A stretch of DNA of 64,000 nt, taken from the NCBI GenBank assembly GCA_030536555.1, contig JAUNPU010000001.1, forward strand, positions 107,814 through 171,813. Reading direction: 5' to 3'. A program made the position numbers and the translations under genes. Within the stretch, counting starts at the first letter, position 1, and each line of letters starts with the position of its first letter. This document shows positions 24,032 through 49,512 of this stretch, in pieces. A model generated the notes under the pieces. That model was not told where the DNA came from, did not search any database, and was given only the letters and a program-made list of their open reading frames with translations. Source of the DNA: Eubacteriales bacterium. Lineage in GTDB: Bacteria > Bacillota > Clostridia > Lachnospirales > Lachnospiraceae.

Positions 24032-24363
24032 AGATTATTTATGCGATTGTAAGCTCTGACGACGGCAACCGTGTGACCGATGTGCTCAATGAGCACGGCT
24101 ACAGCGTCACAAGACTGGCTACCACAGGCGGCTTTCTGAAGAAGGGCAATGCGACCCTGATGATCGGTACCGATGAGGAGCGGGTGGATGAGGCAATCGG
24201 TCTGATCCGCGAAACCTGCGGCAAGCGCCAGAAGATCACCTGCGACATGCCGGCTCCCAATATCGGATCCATTTCCGCCGGATACATGATGATGCCGGTG
24301 ACCGTGGAGCTGGGCGGTGCGACCATCTTCGTGACCGACGTGGAGCGGTTTGAGAAGTTCTGA
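24028..24363 (+). CDS. darA: PII-like cyclic-di-AMP receptor protein DarA (YaaQ/PstA family)
   Basis: Strong resemblance to B. subtilis YaaQ (..VT.LATTGGFLK.GN.T.MIG..). ATGA overlap with the fprA stop. Confidence 0.85.
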   Translation: MKIIYAIVSSDDGNRVTDVLNEHGYSVTRLATTGGFLKKGNATLMIGTDEERVDEAIGLIRETCGKRQKITCDMPAPNIGSISAGYMMMPVTVELGGATIFVTDVERFEKF

Positions 24364-24370
24364 GTGACAG

Positions 24371-24405
24371 GAAGGCAGAGGCGATGGACCTCTGCCTTCT
24401 TTTTA
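24371..24405 (+). terminator. Intrinsic terminator after darA
   Basis: 11-bp stem gaaggcagagg/cctctgccttc followed by ttttt. Confidence 0.85.
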
Positions 24406-24472
24406 AATTATTCGAAAAGTTATATACAATTCGACAATTAACAATTAATAGAAAGATTTTTAATAAAAAGTG

Positions 24473-24501
24473 TTGACAAATACAGGTTCATCTGGTATTA
24501 T
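24473..24501 (+). promoter_or_regulatory. Near-consensus sigma-A promoter of an ORF-free transcription unit
   Basis: TTGACA (24473-24478), exactly 17 nt spacer, TATTAT (24496-24501). An AT-rich upstream region carries three ACAATT direct repeats. Confidence 0.55.
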
Positions 24502-24507
24502 AAAGAC

Positions 24508-25107
24508 AACAAAAAACAAGAGAGGAAAGAAAGTAAAACACAAAAGAGGATAGGGAGAATCCTCAAAGAAGAAATTCCTCAACGTGAAAGGAATTTCAAA
24601 AAAATCTAAGAAAAGGAGGTACGGACCGCCGAAATAGTTAATTAAGTTTCCACTATCACCAGAAAGATAAGGAACAGAAGTTCCAGAGAAAGTTTTAATG
24701 ATGAACTTCAACAGAGAAGTTCAAAGATAGAAATTTACATAGATAAGTTTCAACCAGTTAAAATAAAGATCAGATAGTTGGAAACAAAGGAAAAACGAAT
24801 CTACCAAGTGAACGGCCAAAGTTGATATATATAATCCAATTCAAAACGTTATCAACAAACCGAAAAGAATCGGTCAGGCTATATGACGAGAAAGTATAGT
24901 CAGGACGATAGATTTCGAACCCGGATAACAAAGAAAAAGAGTAAAATGAGTGGAGAATAAAAATACAGGTCAAGTAACAAACGTAGAGGGTACAATTTCA
25001 TAATAAAAGGAAAAACCTGAACAAGAGAGGTACAATCCAATGGACGAAGTCAATTATTGACGGATATCAAAGATCAGAACATCAATGATATCCGTCAAAT
25101 TTTGTTG
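24508..25107 (+). ncRNA. Candidate ~600-nt purine-rich non-coding RNA (identity unknown)
   Basis: Bounded by the promoter above and a 13-bp-stem terminator. The track has no plus-strand ORF of 60 aa or more. It contains a chain of short hairpins separated by A-rich linkers and has strong A/G strand bias. Confidence 0.4.
25057..25107 (+). terminator. Intrinsic terminator ending the ORF-free unit
   Basis: 13-bp perfect stem ttgacggatatca/tgatatccgtcaa with a 16-nt loop, followed by attttgttg. Confidence 0.6.
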
Positions 25108-25146
25108 TGTGCAGATCATGGAGTGCGCCGGTGACGGGTTTCCTGA

Positions 25147-26163
25147 TTATGACAGTCCTTCTAAATCAAAGGGGGGCGTGTATTCTTCTTTTGCGCTGCT
25201 TTTTTCCTGCATGAAGCCCTGATCCAGCCCAAGCTCCAAAGCAGTGTCCACCACCTTCTGGTATTCATAGCTGGTGATCCGCCGGTTCAGCTCCGGATAT
25301 TCCCTGCTTTTATAAAATGGCGTGTACTGACTCATAAGGCTGATGTAATACTGCCCTCTGGGGAGGCTGTCCGCAATCCAGTGGAGAAGCCGGATGGAAT
25401 CCTCCTTCTGACCGGGCAGGACCATGTGGCGGATGATGACACCTCTGTCCATAAGCTGAACGGGGGCGGTATCCGGCTGGAGGTGCGGGCGATCAGATAA
25501 TGTCGGAATCTCCTGGTGGAATACCGGAGCTCCGGTCTGGGCGATCATCTGGCGGATGGCGCCGGATGCCACCTCAAAGTAATCGGCTGCCCGGGAGTAG
25601 CGGGCGGACAACTCGGAGCTGTGGTACTTTAGGTCCGGAAGCCAGATGTCCACATAGTCCTTCAGGGCACTTACGGTCTCAGTCCGCTCGTAGCCGCCGC
25701 AGTTGTAGACCACCGGAATGTGAAGCCGGTGGCGGACACGGTCCAGCGCCGGCAGAATCCAGGGCAGATAGTGGGTGGCGGTCACCAGATTGATGTTGTG
25801 AGCGCCCTGATCCTGCAGCTTTAAGAAGATGTCTGCCAGCTGATCGGAGGTGAGTGCCTTGCCGTACAGCTCCTGGCTGATCTGATAGTTCTGGCAGAAG
25901 CAGCAGCGAAGGGTGCAGCCGCTGAAGAATACAGTGCCGCTGCCGCGAAATCCGCTGATGCATGGCTCCTCCCAGTGGTGAAGGGCGGCGCGTGCCGCTG
26001 TGATTCTGGAGGTGGCGCCGCAAAAGCCGGTAACCGGAGCAGGGGAGCTGTCAGCAGTGCCGACGCTTTCGTGAGGGACGGAGGCTGTCCGGTTTACTCC
26101 GCATATGCGGGGGCAGAGGCGGCAGCTTTCCATCTGTTCGTATATAAATGAAGTCTGATTCAT
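25147..26163 (-). CDS. Radical SAM protein (pyruvate formate-lyase activase-related, PflX-like)
   Basis: CRLCPRICGVNR N-terminal Cys motif plus the CTLRCCFCQNYQIS radical-SAM CxxxCxxC-type cluster motif. Confidence 0.8.
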   Translation of the reverse strand: MNQTSFIYEQMESCRLCPRICGVNRTASVPHESVGTADSSPAPVTGFCGATSRITAARAALHHWEEPCISGFRGSGTVFFSGCTLRCCFCQNYQISQELYGKALTSDQLADIFLKLQDQGAHNINLVTATHYLPWILPALDRVRHRLHIPVVYNCGGYERTETVSALKDYVDIWLPDLKYHSSELSARYSRAADYFEVASGAIRQMIAQTGAPVFHQEIPTLSDRPHLQPDTAPVQLMDRGVIIRHMVLPGQKEDSIRLLHWIADSLPRGQYYISLMSQYTPFYKSREYPELNRRITSYEYQKVVDTALELGLDQGFMQEKSSAKEEYTPPFDLEGLS

Positions 26164-26333: not shown

Positions 26334-26567
26334 ATACAAAGCAGTGATGTAATTCCTGGAATGCTCGACAACCTTACCAATTTTGAACCTACATTTGTGA
26401 CATCGGGATTCCAATATTTGTGAGTGGATGTCAGGCCTCCTTTTGAGTGGAAGGCAGAAGCTTACGTGAGGTTGCCCACCTAGCAACAGCTAGGCGTCAA
26501 TAAGTAAGACCGACATTTTGGGATTACAAAAGAGAAAAGCAGCGAGAAATCGCTGCTTTATCTTTTT
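26334..26567 (+). promoter_or_regulatory. Candidate riboswitch/attenuator-type leader (or independent sRNA) upstream of AI-2E transporter gene
   Basis: A long-range helix pairs 26349-26377 with 26504-26527 (~23 bp with bulges) and encloses internal hairpins. An intrinsic terminator at 26537-26567 lies 48 nt before the start codon. Confidence 0.45.
26537..26567 (+). terminator. Intrinsic terminator at end of leader
   Basis: 8-bp stem aagcagcg/cgctgctt with a 6-nt loop, followed by tatcttttt. Confidence 0.75.
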
Positions 26568-47857: not shown

Positions 47858-47914
47858 TAAGAAAACGCCTTGTGAATGCAGGGCGTTTTGACGTATCGAT
47901 TAGATTTTATCGTG

Positions 47915-47943
47915 TTGACGGCTTCTGTAAGAACCCTTATAAT
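47915..47943 (+). promoter_or_regulatory. Host promoter immediately upstream of attL (pre-insertion promoter of the pfk leader)
   Basis: TTGACG (47915-47920), 17 nt spacer, TATAAT (47938-47943). Confidence 0.5.
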
Positions 47944-47954
47944 AGCGTTAGGTG

Positions 47955-48009
47955 CAAAAAAACCGGTCCCGAAGCACTGACTGCGACGGAACCGATTAAA
48001 AAGGGGAGG
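47955..48009. repeat. attL direct repeat
   Basis: c-a7-ccggtcccgaagcactgActgcGacggaaccgattaaaaaggggagg. It is 45/47 identical to 54884-54930 and has one extra A in the A-run. Confidence 0.85.
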
Positions 48010-48178
48010 TTATTGTAATGACCATTTTAGGCGGTTTATACCCGTTTAAAGTGGTCTTATTGTTATTCAATTATATTTTTTGGAATTTATTTTGATTTAT
48101 ATTAGTGTAATAATTTGGTGTAAATATTGGTGTATAGAATATTGAAAAATAGATGTATTACCATTTTTCAGAATTGTA

Positions 48179-48406
48179 TTATTTGTAATTATCATTTCTT
48201 GGATATGGATTAGGCGTATCTGTTAATCCAGCAAGATAATCCATACTGGTATCTAATGCCACTGCTATTCTTTTGCATTGTTCAAATGTATAATACCGTT
48301 TTCCACTTTCAATTTTTGAATAATCACTTTGGTCAATTCCTGTTAGAAGTTGCATTTTAACTTGTGTATATCCTTTAGATTTTCGCAATTCCTTTAATCG
48401 TGACAT
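48179..48406 (-). CDS. XRE-family HTH transcriptional regulator (element repressor candidate)
   Basis: LKELRKSKGYTQ....TGI.QS.YSKIE.G HTH_3 pattern. Divergent from the element's rightward genes. Confidence 0.85.
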   Translation of the reverse strand: MSRLKELRKSKGYTQVKMQLLTGIDQSDYSKIESGKRYYTFEQCKRIAVALDTSMDYLAGLTDTPNPYPRNDNYK

Positions 48407-48464
48407 GACTCATCTCCTTCATAATTATATTTTTTGCATAGTTCGATTATGTCATACTGACCTA

Positions 48465-48493
48465 TTGACAATAGGGTGAAATTGACCTAAAAT
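48465..48493 (+). promoter_or_regulatory. Rightward element promoter with overlapping 15-bp palindrome (operator candidate)
   Basis: TTGACA (48465-48470), 17 nt spacer, TAAAAT (48488-48493). The palindrome CCTATTG-A-CAATAGG (48461-48475) overlaps the -35. Confidence 0.55.
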
Positions 48494-48522
48494 GAGAATA
48501 TTACAAGAAGGAGGTAACAAAT

Positions 48523-48690
48523 ATGGGACGAAAATCAAATAAATCCAGTGATGGATACAATTCTGGTATTTACTATTATGAAGATGAACCTGATGAGAGG
48601 GATTGTCCAGATTGCAACGGTACTGGATATGACCCATTGGATGGTGGACAATGTGATAGGTGCAACGGTACCGGAGTTATTGACCGATAG
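48523..48690 (+). CDS. 55-aa protein with two DnaJ-type CxxCxGxG zinc-finger motifs
   Basis: My own translation gives MGRKSNKSSDGYNSGIYYYEDEPDERDCPDCNGTGYDPLDGGQCDRCNGTGVIDR. RBS gaaggagg lies 8 nt upstream. Below the 60-aa track cutoff. Confidence 0.55.
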   Translation: MGRKSNKSSDGYNSGIYYYEDEPDERDCPDCNGTGYDPLDGGQCDRCNGTGVIDR

Positions 48691-48742
48691 TAGCAAGGTG
48701 ACCCATTTTATGTCACAAAATTAACTGTGGGAGGAAAAAGGG

Positions 48743-48895
48743 ATGAGTAAAGAAATACGAAAGCCGGAAGAATTTGAAAGAAAAGCGAGAATACCATCAC
48801 CATATACTGACAATGAAAATGAAAGGACATGGTTGCCTAAAATCGGTACTGATGATAAACGAATGAAAGATTTGGAAAAAATAAGAACGTATTGA
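48743..48895 (+). CDS. Hypothetical 50-aa protein
   Basis: My own translation gives MSKEIRKPEEFERKARIPSPYTDNENERTWLPKIGTDDKRMKDLEKIRTY. RBS gggaggaaaaaggg lies upstream. No recognisable family. Confidence 0.4.
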   Translation: MSKEIRKPEEFERKARIPSPYTDNENERTWLPKIGTDDKRMKDLEKIRTY

Positions 48896-48912
48896 TTCTA
48901 GGAGATTTTACA

Positions 48913-49164
48913 ATGGGACTATTTAGTAGATTGTTTGAGTCATTGAAAAACATAGATTCGAGAGATGTGGAACGTGTTGCTAATGACTTATACGATGTAG
49001 TGGAAAAGAAAACGGATGAGGCTAGAAGAAAAGCTGAAAAGCAAGCAGCATCTCAGTTAAGACAAAAATCTGATGACCAGTTGAGCCGTGGATATGAAAA
49101 AAATAAAGATAATCCAGTGGCTGAAAAACTTATACGCCAAGAAATGGAACGTAGAAAAAAGTAA
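48913..49164 (+). CDS. Hypothetical 83-aa charged/helical protein
   Basis: ATG at 48913 (MGLFSRLF) follows aggag. Lys/Glu-rich. No recognisable family. Confidence 0.5.
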   Translation: MGLFSRLFESLKNIDSRDVERVANDLYDVVEKKTDEARRKAEKQAASQLRQKSDDQLSRGYEKNKDNPVAEKLIRQEMERRKK

Positions 49165-49299
49165 ATATTTTTGGTTAAATAATATAACTGTAAGAATAAG
49201 ACAAAGGAGGTTAAGACCATGAATAGAGTTATTCTTGCGGTTATATTAAAAGCACTGTTAGAAATCATTGATGTCATTACGAATGGCGATTGAGTATCT

Positions 49300-49337
49300 T
49301 GACTTCCAGATAGTTAAACTATCTGGGAGTCTTTTTT
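49300..49337 (+). terminator. Intrinsic terminator ending the early small-gene transcript
   Basis: Stem cttccagatagtt/aactatctgggag followed by tctttttttc. Confidence 0.7.
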
Positions 49338-49512
49338 TCTTTAAGTAAAATTACAGATTCCACATGGTAAAAGAATTTTTCTATCAGAGATTCTATAGAA
49401 TTCCATGGAATCTTATAAAGAAAAAAAGAAATTTACAATATGGAACTAGAATAAGTATATTTATAGTGTATAATAATAGTTAATAGATTAATTTATACGG
49501 GGAGGAGATGCC

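Follow-up and report, generated by a model that had tools for sequence, protein, structure and literature searches.

A conserved, purine-rich structured RNA gene of Lachnospiraceae with Shine-Dalgarno modules and a mini-open reading frame at its terminator

What kind of element occupies the space between darA and a convergent radical-SAM gene in the Lachnospiraceae genome studied here? The window, a 64,000-nucleotide (nt) stretch of contig JAUNPU010000001.1 (Eubacteriales bacterium, assembly GCA_030536555.1), provides all the coordinates used below. A first-pass annotation, made from the letters only, had proposed that region 24473-25107 of the plus strand is a discrete non-coding unit of ~600 nt and possibly a new class of large RNA. 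Conservation, retention of promoter and terminator, and covariation support this proposal: the region is a conserved, strand-specific, structured RNA gene of ~0.6 kb, with its own promoter and terminator, and its family is not in Rfam. We conclude that it represents a new class within the large structured bacterial non-coding RNAs, purine-rich, ~390-790 nt long and found in Lachnospiraceae. This raises the question of what such an RNA does, which we approach below from its structure, its invariant blocks and its genomic neighbourhood.

Inspection of the sequence delineates the gene. A sigma-A type promoter lies at 24473-24501 (+), with a -35 element TTGACA (24473-24478), a 17-nt spacer, an extended -10 TG (24493-24494) and a -10 element TATTAT (24496-24501). 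This promoter, already picked out by the first-pass annotation, scored 11/12 in a promoter scan, the top site of the region, and we infer a transcription start near A24508. The start-proximal sequence AAAGACAACAAAA (24502-24520, +) comprises nearly invariant alignment columns. At the other end, the intrinsic terminator (25057-25107, +), likewise proposed at first pass, is directly visible as a perfect 13-bp stem (25057-25069, TTGACGGATATCA, with 25086-25098, TGATATCCGTCAA) followed by ATTTTGTTG. The loop of this stem, 16 nt, is too long for a simple terminator scanner, and 40 nt separate the terminator from the stop codon of the radical-SAM gene that converges on it. Upstream, darA stops at 24363 and possesses its own intrinsic terminator (24369-24401, 13 pairs followed by a T run), indicating that the RNA is a transcription unit separate from darA.

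The composition of the region is equally distinctive. The purine fraction reaches 0.758 over the first 95 nt, in line with an earlier estimate of about three-quarters, and 0.674 over 24508-25056, which is the most purine-skewed 550-nt segment of the 64 kb, ~3.9 standard deviations above the mean (mean 0.555, standard deviation 0.031). Its GC content is 0.34 overall and 0.27-0.36 locally, versus ~0.55-0.60 in the flanks, with an AT skew of up to +0.5. The plus strand folds better than its shuffles (z = -6.0), the minus strand giving z = -4.2. The open reading frame (ORF) list contains no plus-strand ORF longer than 27 amino acids in the RNA region, so that the description of the unit as ORF-free holds for long ORFs; it fails for a conserved 6-codon mini-ORF at 25040-25060, discussed below. 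An ARAGORN search of the whole window detected neither a tRNA nor a tmRNA.

Is this unit conserved? With the convergent radical-SAM protein as query, we collected 80 genome loci, nearly all labelled Lachnospiraceae and including Hungatella, Lacrimispora, Enterocloster, Brotaphodocola and other genera. Blastn and nhmmer comparisons revealed a conserved spacer beside the radical-SAM 3' end, including at loci that lack darA. A profile built from 20 homologues then detected one full-length copy of the RNA in 50 of the 80 loci and partial copies in 3, the remaining 27 having no detectable copy beside the radical-SAM gene; the window itself holds a single copy. Full-length genome copies measure 389-789 nt, and all 50 retain the promoter (TTGACA/T-17-TAT(A/T)AT), followed by AAAGACAACAAAA, and the hairpin terminator. 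A two-block DNA pattern independent of genomic context (GGAGGTAC...CCRCC, a gap, then ATGACGAGAAAG), whose first block is present in 43 of the 50 genome homologues, found matches on 85 metagenome contigs, which came mostly from the human gut. Homologues, for which a search had been suggested at first pass, thus occur at >130 loci in several genera whose flanking radical-SAM proteins share only 60-77% identity with that of the window. No viral contig matched the context-free pattern and plasmid and phage collections gave no blastn match; with no phage, plasmid or viral copy and one copy per locus, we discarded the idea of an RNA borne by a mobile element or phage. As a side observation, radical-SAM loci of the Lachnospiraceae type were present in metagenome-assembled genomes labelled Selenomonadales (L006), Bacteroides thetaiotaomicron (L012) and Paludibacteraceae (L070), the last two also carrying the RNA; these odd labels probably reflect bin contamination or mislabelling.

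We then asked whether the RNA has a conserved fold. Alignment A1, comprising the window and 44 other sequences (45 in total), was built with MAFFT and fitted to no structure; helices were derived from clade-wise alignment folding and mapped onto window coordinates. As controls, the 3' partners were slid by 1-3 columns, and 500 shuffles were made. Over ten helices, 79.1% of the cells were paired, versus 40-50% in the slid controls, and compensatory changes, with both sides altered, were found in 62 of the 84 pairs. The covariation score of 0.245, versus 0.07-0.12 in the slid controls, was reached by none of the 500 shuffles, and the helix set was recovered independently in three clades. Covariation, which the first-pass annotation had proposed as a check, is therefore strong on a structure-blind alignment, and the frequent G-U pairs indicate that the plus strand is the functional one.

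All these helices lie on the plus strand. Two hairpins near the 5' end are confined to a subclade: P1 (24546-24551/24559-24564), with compensatory changes in 4 of 6 pairs, and P2 (24571-24580/24588-24597), with 7 of 9. They are followed by the small predicted hairpin P3 (24615-24620/24625-24630), which partly encloses the first Shine-Dalgarno (SD) module, and by the A-U-rich helix P4 (24646-24657/24773-24785; compensatory changes in 10 of 12 pairs). The covarying long-range helix P5 (24800-24804/24983-24987) closes a central domain (24800-24987), and its variants UCUAC/GUAGA, UCUGC/GCAGA, UCUGU/ACAGA and UCUAU/AUAGA all preserve the pairing. Inside this domain, clade-wise folding places P6 (24848-24853/24924-24929), P7 (24860-24865/24913-24918) and P8 (24869-24871/24907-24909), leading to the conserved, covarying helix P9 (24874-24884/24894-24904). 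The apical sequence of P9, AUGACGAGAAAG (24883-24894, that is, the loop 24885-24893 and its closing nucleotides), forms a conserved block in which every position but one is invariant or at least 90% conserved, on a stem that covaries. The terminator stem, extendable to 25073/25082, is 90.7% paired in A1, with compensatory changes in 13 of 16 pairs.

The seven hairpins drawn at first pass fared unevenly against this model. Those at 24546-24564, 24571-24597 and 24877-24901 correspond to P1, P2 and P9 and covary; the other four do not stand. The pair at 24821-24856 and 24860-24873 is 48.5% paired, no better than controls, and is replaced by P6-P8. The pair at 24671-24684 and 24703-24722 falls within a lineage-specific insertion of 115 nt inside P4 (24658-24772), represented by gaps in all 44 other A1 sequences; in the window this insertion folds these small hairpins of its own. 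Expansions occur elsewhere in other lineages, between P5 and P6 in L028 and L040, and at other sites, some of them in the 3' domain, in L012, L034, L043, L059 and L068. Two further pairings were considered and left out. A candidate long-range or alternative pairing, AAAUCUA (24602-24608) with UAGAUUU (24909-24915), shows two independent compensatory events (U-A in L003, A-U in L004 and L052) and could mark a conformational switch; it overlaps P7 and P8 and is not general, and we keep it as a possible alternative or tertiary contact. A panhandle between the 5' ACAACAAAA and the 3' UUUUGUUGU tail reaches -9.7 kcal/mol in the window and is not conserved (mean -5.6 versus -5.1 for shuffled tails), so that pairing of the 5' and 3' ends in this test does not account for the conservation of AAAGACAACAAAA.

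These data bear directly on the most trivial explanation, namely that the region is a non-functional AT-rich spacer or a decaying remnant, in which promoter- and terminator-like sites arose by chance. A low GC content and the lack of any database match are what such a spacer would present. Conservation at >130 loci across genera whose flanking proteins have diverged to 60-77% identity, compensatory base-pair changes across ten helices and a promoter kept in 50 of 50 genome copies are not, and we consider this explanation, which the first-pass annotation had itself envisaged, to be of negligible probability.

Does the RNA belong to a known family? At gathering thresholds, a scan of the window against Rfam 15 returned only 6S RNA, at 26350-26528. 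When 24300-25250 was scanned permissively (E up to 10), only chance matches to microRNA and leader models appeared, at 14-24 bits, and ten homologues searched with E up to 5 gave no recurrent family. Thus, neither the RNA region nor its homologues matched OLE, ROOL, GOLLD, HEARO, raiA, T-box or 6S models at gathering or permissive thresholds, which bears out the caution of the first-pass annotation in not assigning the unit to OLE, ROOL or GOLLD. The literature provided no description of the invariant sequences or of such a Lachnospiraceae RNA, an anonymous entry in large candidate lists being possible, and the first 200 of the 408 supplementary files of a structured-RNA survey of the human microbiome (PMC8040213) contained no match.

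The RNA nevertheless resembles OLE (RF01071), ROOL, GOLLD, HEARO and raiA in being an independent unit of ~400-800 nt in anaerobic Firmicutes, with many covarying helices, invariant patches, lineage-specific expansions and neighbouring genes that do not reveal its function. It differs from them by the lack of a covariance-model match, of oapA/B/C-type neighbours and of a prophage or tRNA context, by its strong purine richness and low GC content, and by its SD modules and terminal mini-ORF.

These last features emerged from the most conserved parts of the RNA. Four blocks are nearly invariant: block B, the P9 loop AUGACGAGAAAG, AAAAUUUMAUAUAGA, and AAGAGAGGUAnnnUCCA-AUG-GAY just 5' of the terminator. 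Block B, or SD module 1 (AAAAATCTAAGAAAAGGAGGTACGGACCGCCGAA, 24600-24633, +), is the most conserved segment of the family, with the consensus AAAAAUCUAAGnAAAGGAGGUACGGNCCRCCGAA. It contains a 9-nt SD sequence, AAAGGAGGT (24612-24620), lying partly within P3 and kept in nearly all homologues, which is presumably complementary to the 3' tail of 16S rRNA, as judged from the general Firmicutes tail, the 16S gene lying outside the window. No ATG, GTG or TTG is found at initiation distance from AAAGGAGGT. Alignment conservation defines a second, SD-like module together with the AAAAUUUMAUAUAGA block, here AGAGGGTACAATTTCATAATA (24985-25005, +), and the third module is the SD sequence of the mini-ORF. 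Block B and this 3' module share the core GAGGUAC(R)(G)NCC, and the 3' module looks paralogous to the 5' one. The direct repeat reported at first pass, GAGGGTACAAT/GAGAGGTACAAT, was found at 24986-24996 and 25025-25036, and its copy at 24986-24996 is a weaker third copy of the core.

An SD sequence devoid of a start codon has a precedent. The STAB-SD of the Bacillus thuringiensis cry3A 5' untranslated region (UTR) binds 30S ribosomal subunits and blocks 5'-to-3' decay. In both cases a highly conserved SD sequence matching the 16S tail (GAAAGGAGG in cry3A, AAAGGAGGU here) is located ~100 nt from the 5' end and lacks a start codon; here it sits in the conserved hairpin P3 of a non-coding RNA and not in an mRNA leader, and it may play a comparable stabilising role. 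SD-like and GGA motifs are only weakly enriched overall, with 3.5 GAGG versus 2.2 and 12 GGA versus 10.4 expected from composition per RNA (A.GGA, 6.8 versus 4.6 in shuffles), which argues that the RNA is not a multi-site sponge. The protein-sponge alternative raised at first pass, in the sense of CsrB, was rejected on this basis. Like CsrB and RsmZ, the RNA is purine-rich and non-coding, with GGA stretches; unlike them, it is not enriched in GGA over composition, has no conserved A(N)GGA in hairpin loops, those of P1 and P2 not being conserved, and has no repeat array.

We next consider the mini-ORF. In the window, the SD sequence GAGAGGT (25025-25031, +) precedes, with 9 nt between GAGG and ATG, the frame ATG GAC GAA GTC AAT TAT TGA (MDEVNY*, 25040-25060, +), which is conserved. 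We compared 93 distinct 3' regions, and all 93 keep the arrangement of an SD sequence and a short ORF at or over the terminator, with GAGG at positions -13 to -10 of the start in most of them. The start triplet is ATG in 61, TTG in 21, GTG in 11 and CTG in none. The frame spans 5 codons in 63 sequences, 6 in 22, 10 in 7 and 13 in 1, with the consensus M-D-(E/N)-x-x and the third position the most variable of each codon (GAC/GAT, GAA/GAG). It ends with TAA, TAG or TGA; TGG, for which the column frequencies predict ~6 occurrences, is never seen. Sequences that lack the usual stop have an enlarged terminator loop, and a conserved TAA within this loop terminates the frame at codon 11. Six loci from several genera (L028, L040, L043, L044, L059 and L079) share a common enlarged loop, GUAAUCGAGAACGUGGUUAGUCAAAGAUUC, and exactly these six lack the usual stop and run for 10 codons to the TAA in the loop. 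In the window, the TGA sits within the 5' arm of the terminator stem, so that a terminating ribosome and the hairpin would be mutually exclusive. From these sequence features, we consider the mini-ORF to be probably translated. Covering ~21 of the ~600 nt, it cannot explain the conservation of the RNA; as the sole conserved ORF, it leaves the non-coding assignment standing, a small conserved ORF having been named at first pass as what might undo it. A 25-amino-acid ORF starting from an ATG in the P9 loop (24883-24960) was rejected: it has no SD sequence and varies from 6 to 60 amino acids across homologues, an indel of 7 nt puts the conserved block of L010 in another frame, and the covariation of the stem entails two-base changes within codons.

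The mini-ORF is also what separates us from a second explanation, in which the RNA would be a ribosome-independent, protein-binding scaffold, a ribonucleoprotein RNA with an OLE- or 6S-like role. Its SD-like blocks would then be protein sites, and the apparent mini-ORF an untranslated TCCA-N-TGGA motif beside the A-tract of a bidirectional terminator. Such a role would suit the covarying multi-helix architecture, the invariant loops, the strong promoter and the variable expansions at fixed sites (24658-24772 in the window and those of the lineages listed above), as in other large non-coding RNAs; moreover, selection at the level of the RNA could account for the palindrome-like start context and for the A-rich run that precedes the hairpin. 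It does not readily explain why the first position of the start is A, G or T and never C in 93 distinct sequences, why the SD spacing is canonical, why all four sense codons past the start vary at the third position, or why TGG is absent at the stop and sequences that have lost the first stop conserve a backup TAA in frame. Besides the radical-SAM gene, no conserved protein-coding neighbour suggests a partner. We therefore hold a pure scaffold to be unlikely.

If the mini-ORF is translated, the RNA might conversely be the mRNA of a tiny peptide, fMet-Asp-Glu/Asn-x-x, serving as a signal or acting on the ribosome, the upstream 400-500 nt constituting a structured 5' UTR that controls its synthesis. 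The mini-ORF is indeed the only conserved combination of SD and start in the RNA, M-D-(E/N) is kept with synonymous codon changes, and minigenes of the 23S rRNA E-peptide type offer a precedent. However, residues 4 and 5 vary freely (V, I, E, A, N, H, K, M, F and others), the length may be 5, 6, 10 or 13 codons, the additional residues of the 10-codon variants are set by the terminator stem sequence, no export or processing gene is linked, and the bulk of conservation and covariation lies outside the ORF. A peptide as the purpose of the gene is thus quite improbable.

We also compared the mini-ORF with known short ORFs. Minigenes include lambda bar (AUG AUA UAA) and the 23S rRNA pentapeptide (E-peptide) ORF, and pentapeptide minigenes are known to act in cis on the ribosome. 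The mini-ORF shares with them a tiny size and a strong SD within a structured non-coding RNA, and any effect it has would be due to translation itself or to drop-off, and not to a folded protein; its peptide is unrelated, and it is conserved across genera in a dedicated RNA gene, where it overlaps the terminator. The dual-function small RNAs SR1/SR1P, RNAIII/hld and SgrS/SgrT encode conserved peptides of 26-43 amino acids. The present RNA is likewise structured with a small ORF, of predicted translation, which differs in having 5-6 codons of which only M-D-(E/N) is conserved. Finally, leader-peptide attenuators, some of which give rise to small RNAs, are represented by trpL/rnTrpL, pyrL and ermC-type leaders. 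As in attenuators, where the terminated product is a stable small RNA, the SD and short ORF are placed so that a ribosome would compete with the downstream terminator; here, by contrast, the ORF has 5-6 codons, lies at the 3' end of a 400-700-nt RNA and is followed by no co-directional gene in 77 of 80 cases.

This last point led us to the genomic context. The convergent radical-SAM gene (25147-26163, -), of an uncharacterised family, encodes a protein assigned a PflA-like activase fold, with only weak similarity to glycyl-radical activases, and no solved relative was found. Its tail-to-tail position relative to the RNA is conserved: among the 80 context-free metagenome contigs with room for it, 77 have it convergent with the RNA, at a distance of 8-342 nt (<200 nt in 74 contigs, 226-342 nt in 3). 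In two loci, L095 (785-1916) and L105, co-directional azlC/azlD-like genes take its place and start ~20 nt after the RNA terminator; read-through from the RNA promoter may drive their expression. Both loci keep darA, the RNA and 6S RNA, and the darA of L095 is 100% identical to that of the window. On the 5' side, neighbours are diverse and in both orientations, encoding DedA-like, LeuB, DarA, flotillin-like, chemoreceptor and other proteins. Since darA is the 5' neighbour in a minority of loci only, we set aside a link to darA and cyclic di-AMP. A link to 6S RNA was rejected as well. In the window, the 6S RNA gene (26350-26528, +; RF00013, 67.4 bits) is divergent from the radical-SAM gene, which is therefore flanked by two non-coding RNA genes; this adjacency exists in a subclade only, being found at the same position in L003, L005 and L009 and not in ten more distant loci.

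Such a conserved neighbour raises the possibility that the RNA is a cis regulator of the radical-SAM gene. A signal sensed by the structured RNA would set ribosome loading on the mini-ORF, the ribosome would block the terminator hairpin, and antisense read-through would lower radical-SAM expression by transcriptional interference or by RNase III cleavage of the duplexes; in a variant, an abundant RNA would pair with radical-SAM transcripts reading through the shared hairpin. The tail-to-tail arrangement at 8-342 nt in 77 of 80 contigs, against a 5' neighbour that varies, the position of the mini-ORF stop in or beside the 5' arm of the terminator, which makes ribosome and hairpin exclude each other, and the azlCD genes, placed as if fed by read-through, are all in keeping with this possibility. 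On the other hand, simple antisense control does not require an RNA of 400-700 nt with invariant loops, and alignment folds contained no antiterminator helix, although no search was aimed at one. The SD sequence emerges ~30 nt before the hairpin, and a ribosome would rarely load in time unless the polymerase pauses; in Bacillus subtilis, transcription and translation are reported to be uncoupled, which also counts against such a mechanism. Furthermore, the RNA is unchanged where the radical-SAM gene is gone (L095 and L105), and at 27 of the 80 genome loci no RNA is detectable beside the radical-SAM gene. We consequently doubt that the RNA is dedicated to its convergent neighbour.

We favour, with a probability of roughly 45%, an RNA that acts in trans and engages the translation apparatus. 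Action in trans, and not on a neighbour, is suggested by the lack of a same-strand gene after the RNA in 77 of 80 contigs, by the intact RNA in the two loci that have replaced the radical-SAM gene and by the variable 5' neighbour, and the invariant loops suggest that a trans factor recognises them. The link to translation comes from the features of the mini-ORF and from the observation that two of the four most conserved blocks are SD modules, one being block B and the other the part of the 3' module that holds the SD and start. In the mechanism that we propose, the 5' SD module (AAAGGAGGU in a small hairpin, with no start codon) would bind the 16S 3' tail of 30S subunits in a STAB-SD-like manner, and this binding would stabilise the RNA or sample free subunits. 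At the other end, ribosomes on the mini-ORF would have to melt the 3' terminal hairpin, and the integrity of the 3' end, hence the lifetime or conformation of the RNA, would depend on translational activity. A more specific version, which we put forward as speculation and think unlikely as it stands, is that of an abundant RNA reporting on or buffering translational capacity, through a decoy SD hairpin and a real ribosome-binding site. The 5-codon ORF would then make ribosomes unwind the terminator, so that the availability of free ribosomes would be reflected in what becomes of the RNA or in how often transcription continues into the radical-SAM gene.

Several points weigh against an RNA that works in trans on the ribosome. 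The transcript itself, its ends and its abundance are all inferred from conserved signals. Both the pairing of P3 and that of the SD with the anti-SD are predictions, the invariant SD modules showing no covariation, and SD-like motifs are enriched only weakly, as described above. The conserved TCCA-N-TGGA around the start may represent a motif of the RNA itself, the A-rich stop region may be kept because it supplies the U-tract of a shared bidirectional terminator, and frames +1 and +2 also stop early in many sequences; together, these weaken the argument from stop codons and leave that from the start codon and SD untouched. Lastly, the RNA is very tightly linked to the radical-SAM 3' end, and a cis role would explain this linkage equally well.

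Apart from the RNA gene, the window contains at 47900-49500 a ~1.6-kb island of low GC content, partly purine-rich and free of long ORFs. An XRE-like repressor ORF (48179-48406, -) faces several small plus-strand ORFs with good ribosome-binding sites, one of which (48523-48690) encodes a 55-amino-acid protein with CxxC...CxxC motifs. With promoter-like sites at 47915 and 48465 and a strong terminator at 49301-49331, this island looks like a small mobile or prophage-derived module.

Few large structured bacterial RNA classes of undeciphered function have been described, OLE, GOLLD, ROOL, HEARO, raiA and a handful more, and each of them gave new biology. The RNA described here is frequent in Lachnospiraceae, a family that is dominant in the human gut microbiota, with 85 metagenome contigs, mostly from human gut, in addition to cultured species of Hungatella, Enterocloster and Lacrimispora. 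It is well delimited, has strong support from covariation and combines two unusual features that can be put to the test: an invariant SD hairpin without a start codon, and a conserved ORF of 5-6 codons overlapping the terminator. Should the link to the ribosome prove false, the RNA would still constitute a new ribonucleoprotein or regulatory RNA class deserving an Rfam entry. Should it prove true, it would reveal a new mechanism linking the stability or termination of an RNA to translation.

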